The translations under genes and the position numbers were made by a program. The notes under the pieces are model-generated. The model had not been told where the DNA came from and made no database searches. It was given only the letters and a program-made list of their open reading frames with translations. From Candidatus Poribacteria bacterium (GTDB lineage Bacteria > Poribacteria > WGA-4E > JAJDTR01), in contig OZ244829.1 in the NCBI GenBank assembly GCA_965220415.1, positions 984,717 through 1,048,716 on the forward strand: a stretch of DNA of 64,000 bases, in the 5' to 3' direction. Shown here in pieces: positions 8,923 to 64,000 of the stretch; the first letter of the stretch is position 1, and each line of letters starts with the position of its first letter.

Positions 8923-9424
8923 GCGATTTTGAGGCTATTATATCATTGCCTACAGGGGTTTTCAAGGCATTTTGGGAAGATGAAATTGCGGTCGGCGACC
9001 ACAAAACATTGGTGAAATGCACACAATGGAACATCAAATAGTCACGTCGATATATGGGTGTGTGCGTCATACGGCGAGCATCTTTTCACTGTACTTTATA
9101 TTGGAATTATGATAAACTTCCTGCGAATTCGGCTAGATGCAACCGACTAAGAACTGTCTATGAATTCTCGGTTGTTTATACCATTTCTCTAAAATGATTG
9201 TGCATTGACCGCGTAAATCAGGTAAAGAAAATTGCACGAACCGGAACAAGATGTCTTGCCTCCGCACAAAGCCGGCGGGGCAAGATGCCCCGCCTACGGT
9301 ATATGTGAATGCTATAGTTAAGACATTTTATGCACTATAATTCAAGCGAAATGGTATTACCAGCCAACCACACAGCTTCGACACAACAAATCTTATCCAC
9401 AAAGTAAGGTTTAAGGAGACAAAT

Positions 9425-22315: not shown

Positions 22316-22395
22316 ACTAACGTATCGAATCTGATTTTTGTCACTGGGATGTCGAAGAAACTAGATTGGTAAAGCACGAACCGCGAAAAATCTTA

Positions 22396-22622
22396 GAACC
22401 TGTTTGAACAATAGGTGCCAATGCCATTTTTTGCTATTTGAGGAGTGGAATTTCATGTTTCTGCCGTGACTTGTTGTACACCTGTGGGATCTCTATCGCC
22501 CTCCTTAATCAGTTGCTTGATCCCCGCTGGGGCTTTTGGAGGCTGGTGCGCAGGGGATCTCTATCGCAGTCGCTTTTCGCTCCTTTGATCGCACCCTACA
22601 AATGTACTTTTCAAACAGGCTC
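22396..22622. mobile_element. MITE-like element, copy 2 (TIRs GAACCTGTTTGAA / TTCAAACAGGCTC)
   Basis: Collinear with 1778-2030 and carries two internal GGGATCTCTATCGC units. Abuts the mtnA stop codon. Confidence 0.6.
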
Positions 22623-23660
22623 TTAGTCAACTAACTCCTTTAGGCGCAGAGTGTAAGGCGGTCGAGCAATCCCCTTTTCCGTAATGATGGCGGTAATCAG
22701 GTGGGCGGGCGTAACATCGAATGCGGGACTATAGACCTTGACACCCTCCGGTGCGGTTCGTGTGCCAAAGCCCTCCGTGATTTCTTCCGGTGCACGTTCC
22801 TCAATGGGAATCTGGTCGCCCGTGGGTAGCGAGAGATCCAGCGTGGAGGTCGGCGCGGCGACATAGAATGGAATGTCGTGCGCTTGGGCGAGTATCGCGA
22901 CGTTATAGGTGCCGATCTTGTTTGCTGCGTCACCGTTTGCGGCAATTCGGTCCGCCCCGACGACAGCACACTGTATCTTGCCCTCCTTCATGACTTGGGC
23001 AGCCATATTATCACAGATTAGCGTGACTTCGATTCCCGCCTGCATCAACTCCCATGCGGTTAAACGCGATCCTTGTAGCAGTGGGCGAGTCTCATCGGCG
23101 TAAACACTTATATTTTTTCCGGCTTCATGCGCCGTAAACATAACCGCCAAGGCTGTCCCGTAATCGGAGGTTGCCAATCCCCCCGCATTGCAGTGCGTTA
23201 GAATGGTGTCGCCTTCACTTAGGAGTTGTAAACCGTGTTTGCCAATGGCGCGACACATGGCGCGATCTTCTTCAATGATTGCCAATGCCTCATTTAACAG
23301 TACCTGCTTTAGCTGGGAGATGGGGACATGGTGGTGATTTTCCGCTGTCTTGGTCAACCGGTTGAGCGCCCAGAACAGATTCACCGCCGTCGGCCTTGAC
23401 GTTCCAAGATAATCGGTTACCTTGGTTAATTCATCCGCGAAATCGGCGTAGTTGTCTGCCCGCGACTTCCAGATTCCCAGCACCGTTCCCAACGCCGCCG
23501 CAATTCCAATGGCGGGCGCTCCACGCACGCGCAGCGATTTAATCGCTTCCCACACAGTCTCTAAATCATCGCAGTAAATCTGTTTAAACTCATTGGGCAG
23601 CAAGGTTTGGTCTATCAACCGTATTTTGCCATCTGCCCATTCAATCGTTGGAATCGACAT
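22623..23660 (-). CDS. mtnA: S-methyl-5-thioribose-1-phosphate isomerase (eIF-2B α/β/δ-like family)
   Basis: N-terminus IEWADGKIRLIDQTLLPNEF and GAPAIGIAAA motif are characteristic of MtnA. Confidence 0.75.
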   Translation of the reverse strand: MSIPTIEWADGKIRLIDQTLLPNEFKQIYCDDLETVWEAIKSLRVRGAPAIGIAAALGTVLGIWKSRADNYADFADELTKVTDYLGTSRPTAVNLFWALNRLTKTAENHHHVPISQLKQVLLNEALAIIEEDRAMCRAIGKHGLQLLSEGDTILTHCNAGGLATSDYGTALAVMFTAHEAGKNISVYADETRPLLQGSRLTAWELMQAGIEVTLICDNMAAQVMKEGKIQCAVVGADRIAANGDAANKIGTYNVAILAQAHDIPFYVAAPTSTLDLSLPTGDQIPIEERAPEEITEGFGTRTAPEGVKVYSPAFDVTPAHLITAIITEKGIARPPYTLRLKELVD

Positions 23661-32579: not shown

Positions 32580-33407
32580 CGGTCATCTTCTCCTTTTTCG
32601 GGTTCTATAACTTCTAGAGAATTCTCTAACCTAAGTTGCCACGTTTGTAGCACGAGGAATCTCTATCGCGCTGCTTTTTCAGTCGCTTGATCTGTTAGAT
32701 TGTGCTTGTGATGCGCAAACTGACAGATCACCTGGACGGACAGTGGGGGCGATAGAGATCCCTCTCCAGGTCGGAACCTCCTTACTTGCATTAGACACTT
32801 ATGGCGTAAACCTCTCACCGCATATCGTCTCAATTTACCAGAGACGAAACCGAATCAAACGACTTTTCAATGAAACTCTTACGCCTACCCTAGGTGCGGG
32901 TAGTGTTGGCGGCGAAGTCACTGGCCTAGAACGGGTGCACGACTGCGTTTAGACGCCCTCCCAACCATTACGTGACACCCACGGCGCTGCCGAGGGTGTC
33001 AATGACCCGCCCCATAGGGATCAAGTTAAGCGTTTTAGGGTGCAAGTCACGCAGCGTCAATGTCTTGAACTGTTGATCTCCATGTAGACGTGAGCGAGGG
33101 AATACCAGTTCATTCACTGATGGGTGCGCCACAAAAGATGACTCATGGCGCTGGTTTCCGCAGGTGCCGGTGCGGTTGGAAAGGGATCTCTATCGCACTC
33201 ATTATCCATTCGCTTGATCGCACCTACCGTGTGGGGGATGATAGAGATTTCCTCCCCATCCTATGGGACTAAGTTAAGGGTTTTGCGTCGGAGAACACCA
33301 CCGATACTAGACGAAATCCCTTAAGTCGATCCCAATGGGGTGTCAATGACCCGCCCCCGCATTGTCCCCATTATCAGGCTTCGTAGTTCAAAAGGCAATC
33401 GCGCAAA

Positions 33408-35699: not shown

Positions 35700-36497
35700 T
35701 CTTTTGAATATATACCGTGCGCTGTCAGAAATTGCGCTTTTCAAGATTTTAGGCTTGCTTCACCGATTGTAGAGACAGCACCAAGCGGACGGATTAGAAT
35801 GGGGTAACGTCGGCAGTTTCCACCTGTGGGATCCCTATCGCGCTCATTATCCATTCGCTTGATTCACTCTGGGGCTTTGCTGTAGGTCGAATCAGTTTCT
35901 ATACACCTTCCGCCCCTCTGGGGCTCTCAAGTAACACTCCACATTGCACTCCTCTGGAGTGCGGAAATTTGGACATATCGTATTCTATTGACATTTCGAT
36001 CCTCTGGATCGAGGAAAGGGACTCCGACCAGAAAGTGTTACTTGCTGAATGAATTATTCCGACAGGGATAATGGAGCGCTACCAAGATTTAATTAGGTCG
36101 CGATTCGGAGATTGCGGGATTTCTATCGCAGTCACTATTCGTTCCTTTGATCCTACAAAATAAGCAATTCTCAGCCGCCTGGAGTATAAGCTGATGTTTC
36201 AAGGGAGATTAAGCGAGCGATTAGCGATCAAGTGACTGGAAAGGGGCGCGATAGTGAATCCCGTGCTATAGGGGTCCCACCTAAAGTCCGTAGGCAGGAA
36301 CTAAGGGAGTGAATTATGACCGATCAACCGAGTGGATAGCGAGGGATCAAAGGAGCGAATAGCGATCAACCGACTGATTAGGGAGGGCGATAGAAAATCC
36401 CCTGTGATAGCCAATCCTGATACTAAATCCCGCGCGATAGTGAATCCCGATAGAATCCCAGTATGATAGAGATTCGCTGCTCACCATCCATTCGGTA
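35700..36497. repeat. Intergenic repeat cluster: multiple direct and inverted copies/fragments of the GGGATCTCTATCGC...CATTCGCTTGATCGCACC unit (repeat A)
   Basis: At least 8 GATAG(N)AATCCC fragments in both orientations between 36110 and 36480. Full unit at 35828-35870. Irregular spacing. Confidence 0.6.
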
Positions 36498-37995: not shown

Positions 37996-38191
37996 TACTT
38001 ACAAGATTATGGACATGTACCATCGTTTTTTATTGAAATTGACCCATTAATCGCGGAGACTTCGTAGCGCAAACTGTCAGTTTGCGCGCGAGTTAAGCAC
38101 CGGAAGCACAATCTAACAGATCGTGCTACAAAGGTGGCAACTTGGGTTACGTACGGTTCGGAATTGTAACGATTCCAGTCATCGTATAAGC

Positions 38192-53856: not shown

Positions 53857-55689
53857 TTAAAGCTTGTAAATCCACACGTAGTCAACATTGTTCAAACGAA
53901 TGACATGTTCAAGGGTACCGTCTATGGCGTCGAGATTCACGCGCTTAATTTGGACATCCCGAATATAAGCTACCTCGTAATCGGGAGTAGATATACCGGG
54001 GTTTCTATCGCGTCGATACGATGTCCCTTTGAAGTAGTATCCGAACAACTCGGCTGATAGAGGAGAAACATGCACCACTAGGCCTTCGGCATTTGGTTTT
54101 TGGTTCAAGTATTCGGCAGCAAGGTCCAAACCGGAGGCATCCCCGGTAGTGCAGATTCTGGTAATACCGGCCACACCCCAGAGAGGGTTATAGTATGTGC
54201 CGTAGTAGGGGTGAAGTCGTAGTACGGGAAACACCTGAATCACGAAAACGAGCGCTATAACCGTTACACCGGCAATTTTCCAAACGTGCCATCGTGTATT
54301 ACAGAAACCGAGTTTTTTCAAAAAACTCGGTTTCTCGATGCTGGCTTGGCTCTTTCCATTCTGTGACTTGGCAACACCTAGTGCAGTAATTTTATCAATC
54401 AGTAGAGACAATCCAATCGCCGCCAGAATATCGAGAATCGGGAAGACCGGCAATAGGTAGCGACTGAATTTCTTTGCGCAGACCAACATACATAGCGTAA
54501 AAAGAACGACAAAAACGGACAGCAGCGTGTACATCCGGCAGGTGCTGGCGTATTGAGATTGCTTCCGCACCCGCCATAAGAGCACAGCGCCAACCACAGC
54601 TAAGGGGAGTGTTAACGGAGCGCTTTTAATCGACAACATCAGGGGATAAAATAGCCAACCCGGATCGTAGGCGATTTCACCCAAGAAGTAATGGAGAACA
54701 TCATGTTCGGTTGTTAACGCCCACCGGATACGGTCTACAAAGGGTAGAGCGGCTTTGTAGGCTACGAATGCGACAGCGGCGAGTCCGATTCCGATAATTA
54801 GCAAACCTGATTTTGCCGCGTCCCGTGCAGTGACAATATCTGCCGATACAGTAAGGTGGTTCAACTTAACTCCTGACCAAATCGCTATTCCAATCAGACA
54901 AGGTACGACAATCACGGAAACGGGAACGCCACCGATTGGCAGTTGGTAAACCCACAGCGCGGGCCAACATACAATAAACGTTAGAAATGCTATACAAATC
55001 CATGTTAAAAAAGCGTGGATATTTCTGGAAAATTGAACTGCCGGATTGGTCTCGGCTGCGGAAAATGCGACGAGAAAAGGGAGCAACAACACGAGAACCA
55101 AAGCGCTGCTTTTTGAGAGGCATGCCAAACCGAAGCATACTGCCGAGATTACAAGGTAACGGCGATGCCCCAGCTTTTCTACAAATATCAGGAGTGCGAG
55201 GATTGCCAGTAGGAGAAAAGCCGTGGCGAGAGCATCGGTGATTAAGCGACGCGACTGGATGAGGAAGAGCGGGTCAACCGCCAGAAAGATACCGGCAAAG
55301 GCGGCAATTCGCAATCCGAATAACTTCTTTACCAGAAAGTAGGCGATTACGATACTGCACGCTGTTATGAGGGCAATCGTTAAACGCGCCCGGGCGAGGT
55401 TTGATGGAGATAGAAACGGATGGCTTCGAAGCACAGGTGCGGCAGATAGTGCGCCTTTATATTTCGTCCACAAACTTATGCCACCGAGCCACATGGTTGT
55501 GATACCGGGGTGATAAGATTCGGCAGTGGAGGAAAAATCCGCACCGAGAGTGGAAAGGAAGAATTCTTGAGAGTTAAAAAGCCAATAGGTCTCATCCGAG
55601 GACCAACTGGTATCAAGAGAAAGAGCGCGAGGAAGGAAGGTTAAAGTAATAACCCCAACAAGTATCAGAACGATTCCGTGCCGACCCAA
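53857..55689 (-). CDS. GT-C-fold glycosyltransferase, PMT/ArnT-like (GT39/GT83 family)
   Basis: About 13 TM helices. N-terminal periplasmic-loop motif SDETYW (DE-x-x-Y/W of PMT_2/ArnT). Contains an in-frame 33-bp perfect palindrome at 54303-54335. Confidence 0.55.
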   Translation of the reverse strand: MGRHGIVLILVGVITLTFLPRALSLDTSWSSDETYWLFNSQEFFLSTLGADFSSTAESYHPGITTMWLGGISLWTKYKGALSAAPVLRSHPFLSPSNLARARLTIALITACSIVIAYFLVKKLFGLRIAAFAGIFLAVDPLFLIQSRRLITDALATAFLLLAILALLIFVEKLGHRRYLVISAVCFGLACLSKSSALVLVLLLPFLVAFSAAETNPAVQFSRNIHAFLTWICIAFLTFIVCWPALWVYQLPIGGVPVSVIVVPCLIGIAIWSGVKLNHLTVSADIVTARDAAKSGLLIIGIGLAAVAFVAYKAALPFVDRIRWALTTEHDVLHYFLGEIAYDPGWLFYPLMLSIKSAPLTLPLAVVGAVLLWRVRKQSQYASTCRMYTLLSVFVVLFTLCMLVCAKKFSRYLLPVFPILDILAAIGLSLLIDKITALGVAKSQNGKSQASIEKPSFLKKLGFCNTRWHVWKIAGVTVIALVFVIQVFPVLRLHPYYGTYYNPLWGVAGITRICTTGDASGLDLAAEYLNQKPNAEGLVVHVSPLSAELFGYYFKGTSYRRDRNPGISTPDYEVAYIRDVQIKRVNLDAIDGTLEHVIRLNNVDYVWIYKL

Positions 55690-62553: not shown

Positions 62554-63150
62554 TTAGTAGTGCTCATCGTCTTCCGCTTCGCGCACGAGACGCTTAACGT
62601 TTTCTCGCGCCCGCTGCAACCGGCTGTTCACCGCTGCGTCAGTGATGCCCAAACTTTGAGCAATCGCTTTGTGGTTCATGTCATCTACATAATGTAGAAT
62701 CATCACTTCCCGCTGCGATTCGGGGAGTTGAGATAACACACTGAGTGACATTTCAACGCGCTCGCCGCTCGCTTCGCGCTGCTGCGCTTCTTGATAGTTA
62801 GCGCATGCCTCTTTAATGAGCGCATTCAGTACCTTAGCCGAGTCTGCCTCCTCAGTGTATTTGAGACGGCTCCGATTTTTTCGGCGCCACGCGCCAATGC
62901 ACTGATGGGCTATCCGGAACATCCAGTTCAACAACTTTTCTGAACTCCGAAGATTGTCCAGATGCCGGAAAATCTTAACGAAAGCATCGTTGACAATCTC
63001 GTCGGCGTCTTCGCTGTTGCGTACTTCTTTCAAGACGTACAAAAACAAACGCGTTTTGTACTTCGCGTGCAGCGCATCAAGGGCTTTGTCATCGCCATTT
63101 AAGGCTAGGCGAACCAATTCGGCATCGTCCGGTTTGTCGTCCGCACTCAT
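62554..63150 (-). CDS. ECF-subfamily RNA polymerase sigma factor
   Basis: σ2 (FVKIFRHLDNL) and σ4 (LSQLPESQREVMILHYVDDMNHKAIAQSLGIT) regions; 198 aa. Confidence 0.7.
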   Translation of the reverse strand: MSADDKPDDAELVRLALNGDDKALDALHAKYKTRLFLYVLKEVRNSEDADEIVNDAFVKIFRHLDNLRSSEKLLNWMFRIAHQCIGAWRRKNRSRLKYTEEADSAKVLNALIKEACANYQEAQQREASGERVEMSLSVLSQLPESQREVMILHYVDDMNHKAIAQSLGITDAAVNSRLQRARENVKRLVREAEDDEHY

Positions 63151-63427
63151 TTGGATTCAGCTCGAGAATATGAGATTTGCACCCGCCCATATTTATAAGA
63201 ATGCTCCCTCGGGCTAAAATCTATCGCGCGAACATCATTTTTTTTCTAAAAAATGAACACCTCCCAAAACATCCCGCGCACCTATCCGAATAGATGAGGT
63301 TCATGCAGCGTACCCAAAACCGTATTATCCGTAATTACCCTCACACGCGATTGCCAGACCCGAACTCTCACGGCTCACGCACTAATTTTCATTTCCGCAA
63401 CTTTTCTGGTATAATACGTACGTTGCT

Positions 63428-63515
63428 GGCTATAAGAGAGAAACCGAGTTTTTGGTTCACGTCTGCTAAATTATAGACTGATTTTCGTCTACCTCGTATT
63501 TCCACCGGAAAAAAA
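63428..63515. repeat. ~90-bp element bounded by inverted repeats AGAAACCGAGTTTTT / AAAAACTCGGTTTCT
   Basis: The same two arms occur fused as a perfect palindrome inside the GT39 ORF at 54303-54335. Confidence 0.5.
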
Positions 63516-63560
63516 CTCGGTTTCTGTATTCAGTCGGACAAAGGTAGCAACTTGGGCTAT

Positions 63561-64000
63561 ATGACTATAGACAGCAAGTCCAAAGAAAACCGCATGGACA
63601 CGATATTAGCGACGTTAATCAAAAAACTCCGTGACAAATCTCAGTTCGTGTTCGCCTTGATGCTAATCATCATGGTGGGGCTATGGTACGCCGGTTTGAA
63701 AAACACGCGGCCCATAATACATTTTGAAACAGAGACGTTTTTGGCGTTCTACGGCAACCCCACCGGCGGGTTTTTGAGCGAGGTCGCGAAGTTTTTTGAC
63801 CCGTCGCCTACGGACTGGGACAACTACCAGGCGCGCGAATTGGGTTATGTGTTCGAGTATATTGATGCTCGAATGGTTATACTCTTAAACAAGATCCCAT
63901 TCTTTTCGTACGGCTTTCGCAGTATCTCTCAAATCTCGTTCGCCATTCTTACCTCGGTCGTGCTGTATTTAATCGCAAGGGAACTGTTCCCCACGTTTCG
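63561..64000 (+). CDS. Paralog of the 42836-44830 membrane protein, 5' portion (continues beyond window)
   Basis: Translation of the first about 140 aa (…RPIIHFETETFLAFYGNPTGGFLSEVAKFFDPSPTDWDNYQARELGYVFEYIDARMVILLNKIPFFSYGFRSISQI…) is about 75% identical to 42836+. Open to window end. Confidence 0.6.
   Translation, partial: MTIDSKSKENRMDTILATLIKKLRDKSQFVFALMLIIMVGLWYAGLKNTRPIIHFETETFLAFYGNPTGGFLSEVAKFFDPSPTDWDNYQARELGYVFEYIDARMVILLNKIPFFSYGFRSISQISFAILTSVVLYLIARELFPTF

Follow-up and report, generated by a model that had tools for sequence, protein, structure and literature searches.

The window analysed here, the 64,000-nucleotide stretch of contig OZ244829.1 from a Candidatus Poribacteria bacterium, carries on its minus strand a gene (53857–55689) for a glycosyltransferase of the GT39/GT-C family with 610 residues (PMT_2/PMT; Pfam PMT_2 3e-14, PMT 3e-7). 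Inside this open reading frame (ORF) lies a palindrome at 54303–54335, and a second locus with the same arms is present as an 87-bp element at 63439–63525. The palindrome is probably a hairpin repeat of the repetitive extragenic palindromic (REP) type, which belongs to a family linked to REP-associated tyrosine transposases (RAYTs) and is tolerated in frame in a permissive loop of the glycosyltransferase. Insertion of a REP into a gene is a known kind of event, here found in a poorly studied phylum.

The palindrome in the glycosyltransferase gene

The palindrome AGAAACCGAGTTTTTTCAAAAAACTCGGTTTCT is composed of AGAAACCGAGTTTTTT-C-AAAAAACTCGGTTTCT, with 100% complementarity between the arms. The initial annotation had correctly placed it in frame within the ORF and described it as a perfect palindrome of 33 bp; its arms of 15 bp and centre of 3 bp are replaced here by measured arms of 16 nt around a single central nucleotide. 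On the coding strand it reads GAG AAA CCG AGT TTT TTG AAA AAA CTC GGT TTC TGT, which encodes residues E452–C463 with the peptide EKPSFLKKLGFC, and two of the three reading frames of this copy on that strand are open. Folded as RNA, the hairpin reaches −19 to −22 kcal/mol (z = −5.6 to −6.6), the coding strand having −19 kcal/mol. The 15-nt arm occurs without mismatch at four sites in the window (54303, 54321 on the minus strand, 63439, and 63511 on the minus strand), where 0.15 would be expected by chance even with two mismatches; none of the shuffles came to 6. Both loci have identical arms and belong to one repeat family, as had been proposed. A search of the whole 64-kb window against Rfam at gathering thresholds gave no family match.

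In the AlphaFold model of the protein (26-sequence alignment, mean predicted local distance difference test (pLDDT) 65, predicted template modelling score 0.68), residues 446–465 form a coil with pLDDT <50 between helices 415–445 and 465–491, which are predicted to be the last two membrane helices before the C-terminal domain. This agrees with the hydrophilic loop that the initial annotation had described. Its view of an in-frame insertion tolerated by the protein also holds. The loop that holds residues 452–463 differs in length among homologues. Being rich in Lys and Arg, the insert would fit a cytoplasmic position of this loop under the positive-inside rule.

About 12 homologues share 85–90% identity with the window protein, two of them N-terminally truncated, and many more are distant. 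The close homologues whose loci were fetched share the gene order, and some homologues are named Candidatus Poribacteria. Five close homologues contain the hairpin-encoded peptide, as EKPSFLKKLGFC in P0001 and P0002, with the ending KRLGFR in P0003 and TKLGFC in P0006, and as EKLSFFKKLGFC in P0009. Nine other close homologues carry EKPSLF-ARW or EKPNLL-ARL and are 7 residues shorter. In the DNA alignments L240 and L241 have the hairpin at identical codons, the former with two substitutions in a single arm and the latter with one substitution and a changed centre base. L001 keeps GAGAAACCGAGTTT and is missing 21 bp, among them the second arm. In P0015 (L242), a homologue of 64% identity, an entire block of 72 bp, or 24 codons, that the close clade has at 54295–54366 on the minus strand is absent; on the coding strand this block consists of 30 nt, a G, the 33-bp palindrome and 8 nt. 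A loop of 12 residues had been proposed as the unit of comparison between orthologs. The length difference exists, amounts to 7 residues (21 bp) rather than 12 in close relatives, and leaves one arm in all of them; the half-site GAGAAACCGAGTTT is present in every close homologue, including those without the second arm, and is absent from more distant ones.

The hairpin diverges at about the same rate as the surrounding gene, so this copy is inherited and not recent. Judged from these alignments, it appears to be an old, vertically inherited and slowly decaying copy. In a neighbour-joining tree the full and shortened forms are interspersed, which suggests repeated deletion or recombining alleles. 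Long palindromes are unstable, and the shortened form is most simply a secondary loss, because its retained arm matches the consensus arm of the large family described below at 14 of 14 positions. It is from these comparisons that we infer the order of insertion and deletion events at this gene.

The same comparisons bear on an origin in place, by which a half-site (EKPS..., as in L001) was copied to its own complement through replication template-switching, with no mobile element involved. Such an origin would agree with the retention of GAGAAACCGAGTTT in all close homologues even where the second arm is missing, with the interspersed forms in the tree and with the unusual perfection of the window copy with its 1-nt centre. 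We nevertheless regard it as highly improbable, since the 14/14 match of the half-site to the arm of a family with more than 100 copies indicates that a family member was already there, the full form occurs in at least three lineages with independent substitutions, and more distant homologues are without the half-site altogether. Template switching could still explain the perfection of the window copy within an inserted REP-type hairpin.

A dispersed hairpin family and its longer forms

The family was scanned in one genome per species, divided into 8-kb tiles, with the pattern GAAACCGAGTTT, 1–61 nt, AAACTCGGTTTC. The pattern fixes 24 bases, with one B (not-A) base between two variable gaps, and fewer than one match is expected by chance. 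All family counts are lower bounds and, in this and the following paragraphs, are counts among the matches listed. At least 141 hairpins were found in at least 117 genome tiles of other genomes, and the arms thus recur beyond the two window loci, as had been anticipated. Most lie in Candidatus Poribacteria (at least 81 hairpins in at least 67 tiles) and in Chloroflexota of the Ardenticatenales, Caldilineales, Promineifilum and Anaerolineae (at least 31 in at least 28 tiles). Two unclassified metagenome-assembled genomes contribute at least 19 hairpins in at least 15 tiles, the Candidate Phyla Radiation (CPR) at least 5 in at least 4, Gammaproteobacteria at least 4 in at least 2, and Cyanobacteria at least 1 in at least 1. 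Local density reaches 4 copies per 8 kb.

The hairpin core is (A)GAAACCGAGTTT-loop-AAACTCGGTTTC(T), and the family arms can also be written GAAACCGAG...CTCGGTTTC. In 125 of 141 copies no more than 14 nt separate the 12-nt stem cores; the hairpin of 31–33 bp is the standard unit of this dispersed repeat family. The commonest interiors are TTTCTTCA/TGAAGAAA (23 copies) and TTTCTTGA/TCAAGAAA (15 copies). Among 94 oriented copies of the Poribacteria type, 92 have a T directly after GGTTTC. At stem pair 13, Poribacteria have T:A in 80 of 81 copies, against C:G in 19 of 31 Chloroflexota and 5 of 5 CPR copies, which is a compensatory change and demonstrates that the upper stem covaries.

Of 129 short-loop copies compared with crude ORF calls, 89 fall between genes and 21 inside called ORFs, some of which are over-extended. 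The median distance from a hairpin to the upstream stop codon is 42–71 nt, and relative to co-directional flanking genes both orientations are equally frequent (29:29). Flanking direct repeats of at least 3 bp occur at chance level in 127 hairpin copies, and no target-site duplication is seen. The paired-arm pattern has 0 matches in the viral collection, giving no sign of phage carriage; a single 15-mer arm, which is too unspecific for this purpose, returns single chance matches among the matches listed.

The clustering of copies a few tens of nucleotides after stop codons could also be that of a cis-element of the host that terminates transcription in both directions, stabilises mRNA or binds a protein; its many copies would be kept by selection for that function rather than by transposition, and the intragenic copy would attenuate or pause glycosyltransferase expression. 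The covarying stem, the stable fold with its A-tract/stem/T-tract layout (AGAAA-stem-TTTCT), and a LepA site in Giovannonibacteria (see below) that keeps a palindrome while the sequence changes would all agree with such a function. That such a function is the primary explanation is very unlikely, given that the terminator scan did not flag the intragenic copy at 54303–54335, where no T-tract follows the hairpin and the U-tract is poor. Against it stand also the lack of orientation bias, the copies inside essential coding regions and the tight association with RAYT genes, which is unexpected for a plain terminator. A cis-element is compatible with co-option of a mobile REP, and the two are not exclusive.

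The second locus of the window (63439–63525, plus strand) is a long-loop form of the hairpin, with arms at 63439–63453 and 63511–63525 and an interior of 57 nt. The initial annotation was right that an element of about 90 bp with the same arms exists, and its coordinates (63428–63515) were about 10 nt off. The element is intergenic and folds with −27.5 kcal/mol (z = −3.0); on one side lies an extracytoplasmic function (ECF) sigma factor gene (62554–63150, minus strand), on the other an ORF for a membrane protein, beginning at 63561. Window positions 63440–63560 align with L233:6720–6851 at 74% identity over 133 nt although the flanking genes are unrelated, which identifies a repeat subfamily and not an orthologous untranslated region. 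The unit of this long variant includes a 35-nt tail at 63526–63560 (plus strand), which is common to the L233 and L204 copies and contains the motif GGTAGCAACTTGGG at 63543–63556. About 24 nt upstream of the hairpin, a sigma-70-like promoter is matched at consensus level only (TTTTCA-18-TATAAT with an upstream TG, 63386–63415, plus strand); if it is used, the long-loop hairpin lies in the 5' untranslated region of the ORF at 63561.

Long-loop forms account for 16 of 141 copies overall and 4 of 81 in Poribacteria, and their interiors are mutually unrelated. The orthologous long-loop copies L124 and L156 of two Chloroflexota have kept the arms and diverged in the interior, and in the pair L200/L206 the interior is inverted. 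Rare long loops with diverged interiors argue for the short hairpin as the basic unit and for the 87-bp form as derived; the latter is a rare long-loop variant of the hairpin.

The motif GGTAGCAACTTGGG (63543–63556; as GGTGGCAACTTGGG at 38133–38146) recurs just downstream of different repeat types, also in the flank of the repeat at 32656. In L233 and L204 it comes after an AAACTCGGTTTCT arm, and the repeats may carry it as a promoter-like or leader module. Hairpins lie directly upstream of paralogous ECF sigma genes at L128:1655–3700, L198:137 and L204:6169 and share the downstream sequence …CCCAAATTTYGTGMTAAAAAA…CGTCYTAC, which resembles an ECF-type promoter; the long-loop copy of the window likewise adjoins an ECF sigma gene (62554–63150).

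In many Poribacteria copies the hairpin forms the centre of an inverted repeat of about 100 bp, GGCTCATGTAAAAAGAAAGTGCAAAGCGCGAAGA-hairpin-TGTTGCACGATTTCTTAACATGAGCC, with the ends GGCTCATGT...ACATGAGCC, as seen in the sister genomes L181, L234, L178, L219, L230 and L222. Flanking duplications of 7–8 bp are present in at least 6 of 17 composite copies, for example ATGAGTAA in L181 and TTCACGTT in L234. This composite behaves as a true miniature inverted-repeat transposable element (MITE) built around a REP. The 20 nt located 5' of the glycosyltransferase hairpin are weakly similar to its inner part. With nhmmer, the composite profile reaches about 20 nt 5' of the hairpin, likewise in L240 and L241, and scores a weak 34.4 bits with this flank compared to 29.0 for the hairpin alone. 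This hints weakly that the 72-bp block may be a single insertion of a partial composite element.

The initial annotation had taken the arms as terminal inverted repeats of the 87-bp element and the 33-bp palindrome as its minimal, excised footprint or fused-repeat form. In terms of mechanism, the 87-bp element would be the intact form of a cut-and-paste MITE mobilised by a DDE transposase. The identity of the arms at both window loci would fit, and the duplications around the composite imply that a transposase recognising terminal inverted repeats acts on a hairpin-containing element. Yet the short hairpin is by far the commonest form (125 of 141 among the matches listed), the long-loop forms are few and have unrelated interiors, and hairpin-only copies are without duplications of at least 3 bp. 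The inverted-repeat ends of the composite are its outer GGCTCATG modules and not the hairpin arms, and apart from Y1 no transposase recurs beside the hairpins. An element of 31 bp is also too short for two-end synapsis by a DDE enzyme. We therefore consider this explanation very unlikely. The arms act as the stem of a REP-type hairpin, with covariation, no target-site duplication and a position beside RAYT genes. Neither the footprint nor the fused-repeat origin is upheld, and both the direction and the mechanism are revised, with the 87-bp form derived from the short hairpin.

A RAYT-type gene flanked by the hairpin

When the ORFs close to hairpins were clustered, no enriched mobility gene emerged, only metabolic families that are common in Poribacteria (PhyH, GFO_IDH_MocA, SDR, WD40, MR_MLE) and ECF sigma factors. 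A phmmer search for transposases with approximate queries for IS200, IS608 and the E. coli RAYT gave two hits, the first of them in L205, and hits were then confirmed by Pfam and NCBIfam. L205:5956–6519, on the Poribacteria chromosome OZ252032, encodes a protein of 188 residues with a Pfam Y1_Tnp match (4e-8), in which NHYHIL forms the HUH motif and YIHLNPV a tyrosine motif like that of RAYTs. Its sole NCBIfam match is NF047646, 'REP-associated tyrosine transposase', with 70.6 bits. Two identical copies of AGAAACCAAGTTTTGAAGAAAAAACTCGGTTTCT flank the gene, at a distance of 15 nt on the upstream side and of 32 nt on the downstream side. Among the 6485 homologues of the protein, several bear the JGI name 'REP element-mobilizing transposase RayT'.

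The arrangement recurs in the homologues. L245 (87% identity, Poribacteria OZ242335) has an exact family hairpin downstream and a degenerate copy upstream. The other three loci are L243/244 (69%, named Chloroflexi/Anaerolineaceae), L246 (66%) and L247/248 (64%), and at all four a hairpin of the same design lies 0–27 nt from each gene end. At the three more distant loci the outer stem AGAAACC/GGTTTCT is constant and the inner part is CAGG:CCTG or CTGG:CCAG; the inner triplet of the RAYT-flanking hairpins changes in a compensatory manner between CGAG:CTCG, CAGG:CCTG and CTGG:CCAG. A Y1 gene is flanked by the hairpin at every locus examined (L205, L245, L243/244, L246, L247/248). This layout is that of a REP-RAYT system, or REPtron. 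By analogy with such systems, the RAYT would mobilise the hairpin. A second Poribacteria RAYT (L169:5197–5682) passes the NCBIfam cut-off with 121 bits and flanks a different repeat.

The hairpin-flanked RAYT homologues L245, L243, L246 and L247 are all situated among defence-type genes, with Cas1 and Cas3 as neighbours in L245, an SNF2 helicase and an MmeI-type methylase-nuclease in L243, and nSTAND/EAD and caspase-like proteins in L246 and L247.

The case for a RAYT-linked REP in the glycosyltransferase loop is built on the membership of the hairpin in the family, on its copy number across sister genomes, on its position at both ends of RAYT genes, on covariation of the stem, orthologous inheritance and placement in a loop, and mobility of the hairpin is suggested by arrangement and distribution. 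Several observations weigh against it. The source genome is sampled by the 64-kb window, in which the family has two loci and no ORF encodes a Y1 transposase, so that copy number and cognate RAYT for this genome are extrapolated from sister genomes. No presence/absence polymorphism that would speak for recent mobility was captured at an orthologous intergenic site; in a filled-versus-empty comparison of the intergenic copy of L001, the flanks do not align with the window. The RAYT-like proteins score 67.8–72.8 bits against an NF047646 cut-off of 80, and no other model matched. The composite with its 7–8-bp duplications points to at least one additional, different mode of movement, and the interspersed forms in the glycosyltransferase tree complicate the order of events. 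Finally, the hairpin has no GTAG or CGTC tag. It ends in AGAAAC...GTTTCT and is flanked only by A at −1 and T at +1, whereas described REP superfamilies typically carry one of these tags at one end of the palindrome (Di Nocera et al. 2013; PMC3733652).

According to the history that we propose, the palindrome is a short, non-autonomous hairpin repeat with many copies scattered in the genomes of these Poribacteria. A single-copy HUH/Y1 RAYT would, by analogy, recognise the folded single-stranded hairpin and cut and join beside it, leaving no target-site duplication. Binding and cleavage of single-stranded REP DNA have been reported for the E. coli RAYT only (cited in PMC3733652). One copy, alone or inside the slightly larger 72-bp insertion, would have entered the loop codons of the glycosyltransferase in an ancestor of the window organism and its close relatives, at a site that corresponds to a disordered loop between the last two transmembrane helices. 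The inserted length would have kept the frame, and the protein would have gained a tolerated Lys-rich coil. Vertical inheritance would then have been accompanied by decay through point mutation in some lineages and by loss of 21 bp including one arm in others. Bertels et al. 2017 (PMC5581495) report that RAYTs of 'Group 4' are frequent in Cyanobacteria, Chlorobia and Caldilineae, and the transposase clade may correspond to this group.

Intragenic copies in other proteins, neighbouring repeats and related systems

In-frame hairpins are also present in other proteins. The linker of a Thiotrichaceae nonribosomal peptide synthetase (NRPS) has two tandem copies (ETEFLEKTRFL and ETEFLQETRFL), a gammaproteobacterial fusion of Cas6 and reverse transcriptase (Cas6-RT) has two copies (RNRVYSKNSVS), and a Caldilinea ORF contains EKPSFLEKLGF in the same frame as the glycosyltransferase. 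In one Giovannonibacteria genome both LepA and GatA carry LETEFPSGNSVS, and both proteins align over their full length to solved structures in the PDB. In LepA the insert contributes 9 extra residues at the junction of the G domain with domain II; in GatA it takes the place of a loop about as long. Other Giovannonibacteria LepA proteins have other palindrome-encoded peptides at the same site, the forms by lineage being LETEFPSGNSVS, LEARLPSGSRAS, GRPSGRPT, EAGLPSGSPAS and KSDFPGKSDF. For TTGGAAGCTCGGCTTCCAAGCGGAAGCCGAGCTTCC in the LepA of L250, the DNA follows this design except that an A:T pair has become G:C in both arms. The closest relative, L249 (89% identity), has no hairpin at the LepA site. 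In L249:1–550 and L250:1–517 a Y1_Tnp gene lies directly upstream of lepA (501 onward), with a slight overlap. Over the catalytic core, the Y1 protein of L249 shares 41% identity with the Poribacteria RAYT (E = 2e-20).

The LepA variants and the RAYT likeness of L249 are what suggest a broad superfamily with lineage-specific variants. One RAYT-like clade and one hairpin design (AGAAACC/GGTTTCT or GGAAAC/GTTTCC, with a free inner triplet) would then extend across Poribacteria, Chloroflexota, Patescibacteria/CPR and others, and its hairpins would enter coding sequence in frame time and again, essential translation genes included. We put this forward as a tentative and rather doubtful proposal. 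If it is true, the LepA site is either a true insertion hot spot or a place of concerted replacement of an intragenic hairpin, and REP-type elements are a recurrent source of protein loop variation in small genomes.

Recent transfer was considered as the reason for identical hairpins across phyla and was dropped, since the RAYT homologues carry triplet variants and CPR genomes have their own variants and RAYT-like genes. The scan with 24 fixed bases could return only one hairpin variant. Hits outside Poribacteria and Chloroflexota may thus be coinciding variants, and recent transfer between phyla is not required.

The window contains other repeats. A second and far denser family, GTAGGTGCG...CGCACCTAC, has about 16 copies per 64 kb with a unit of approximately GTAGGTGCGATCAAGCGAATGGATAATGAGTGCGATAGAGATCCCTTTCCAACCGCACCTAC; it is GTAG-tagged, has a long outer stem and is REP/REPIN-like. 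Its 14-mer core occurs, on both strands, at 1867, 10743, 13737, 20411, 22486, 22554, 24139, 30164, 32656, 32749, 33183, 35828, 36116, 37623, 37652 and 45584. The L169 RAYT is flanked by related GGTAGGTGCGG...CCGCACC hairpins, and in other genomes, at L142:2305, L227:1896 and L233:1758, the core of this family is joined to a single arm of the AGAAACC hairpin. Elements of a third type, about 240–260 bp long, lie at 1773–2034 and 22392–22626 and have the terminal inverted repeats CTAAGAACCTGTTTGAA/TTCAAACAGGTTCTTAG with GCGATAGAGATCCC units inside. The inverted-repeat element at 9170–9365 is 97% identical over 109 nt to part of L001:11978–12257, in a different place; the L001 element sits between a sigma factor and a GT2 gene, and the same two genes are about 12 nt apart in the window. 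This is a clear presence/absence case for another small mobile element. Window positions 35929–36013 match an adjacent piece of L001 at 91%.

The family is closest in its features to the REP/REPIN-RAYT systems (REPtrons) of Escherichia, Pseudomonas and Stenotrophomonas. Both have a palindromic repeat of 20–40 bp, a RAYT-type Y1/HUH gene flanked on both sides by the repeat, no target-site duplication and occasional intragenic copies (PMC3733652), and the many dispersed, mostly extragenic copies of REPtrons have their counterpart here in the sister genomes; REPs inside genes have been reported in several species (PMC3733652). In contrast to REPtrons, the hairpin described here is without a GTAG or CGTC tag, its stem is long and nearly perfect (13–16 bp) where the REP is an imperfect, bulged palindrome, and its unit is a single hairpin instead of a doublet of two REPs. 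The hosts are Poribacteria, Chloroflexota and CPR, and the transposase is just under the NCBIfam RAYT cut-off. To our knowledge, work on REP-RAYT systems has been confined almost entirely to Proteobacteria. REPs are 'extragenic' by name, and RAYTs are viewed as vertically inherited, domesticated transposases.

Rickettsia palindromic elements (RPEs), of roughly 100–150 bp, likewise are in-frame palindromic repeats in still-functional genes that add a surface peptide, and the intact reading frames of GT39, LepA, GatA, NRPS and Cas6-RT resemble this behaviour. We know of no dedicated transposase for RPEs and of no RPEs beyond Rickettsia. They show no sequence relationship to the present unit, which has 31–33 bp and is RAYT-linked, and they carry a CGTC tag (PMC3733652). 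Bacterial MITEs such as Correia/NEMIS, RUP, ERIC and Nezha share with the hairpin that they are small, non-coding, dispersed, hairpin-folding and gene-adjacent. MITEs have 70–300 bp, terminal inverted repeats of 15–30 bp and target-site duplications and are mobilised by DDE enzymes; the hairpin-only copies show none of these traits, and only the composite of about 100 bp is MITE-like. IS200/IS605 elements and their palindrome-associated derivatives use the same Y1/HUH chemistry on single-stranded DNA, recognise subterminal hairpins and leave no duplication. They differ in that their left end is distinct from their right end and that they usually bring along a transposase of their own, in several copies, whereas here a single symmetric hairpin is repeated and the transposase gene is found once among the matches listed (at least 117 tiles).

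The finding in this window is in itself ordinary, a decaying mobile hairpin in a permissive loop. What is notable in the family is the missing GTAG/CGTC tag, the abundance in the sampled Poribacteria and Chloroflexota and its tolerance of, or even preference for, positions in frame within proteins. In annotation, it accounts for unusual peptides (for example EKPSFL.KLGF, ETEFL..TRFL and RNRVS..NSVS) that turn up in loops and in 'hypothetical proteins', as well as for indels between close orthologs. With a small RAYT and a 33-nt substrate, it is a tractable case for how single hairpins get copied, and its intragenic copies represent a natural record of protein loops that accept insertions of 11 residues.

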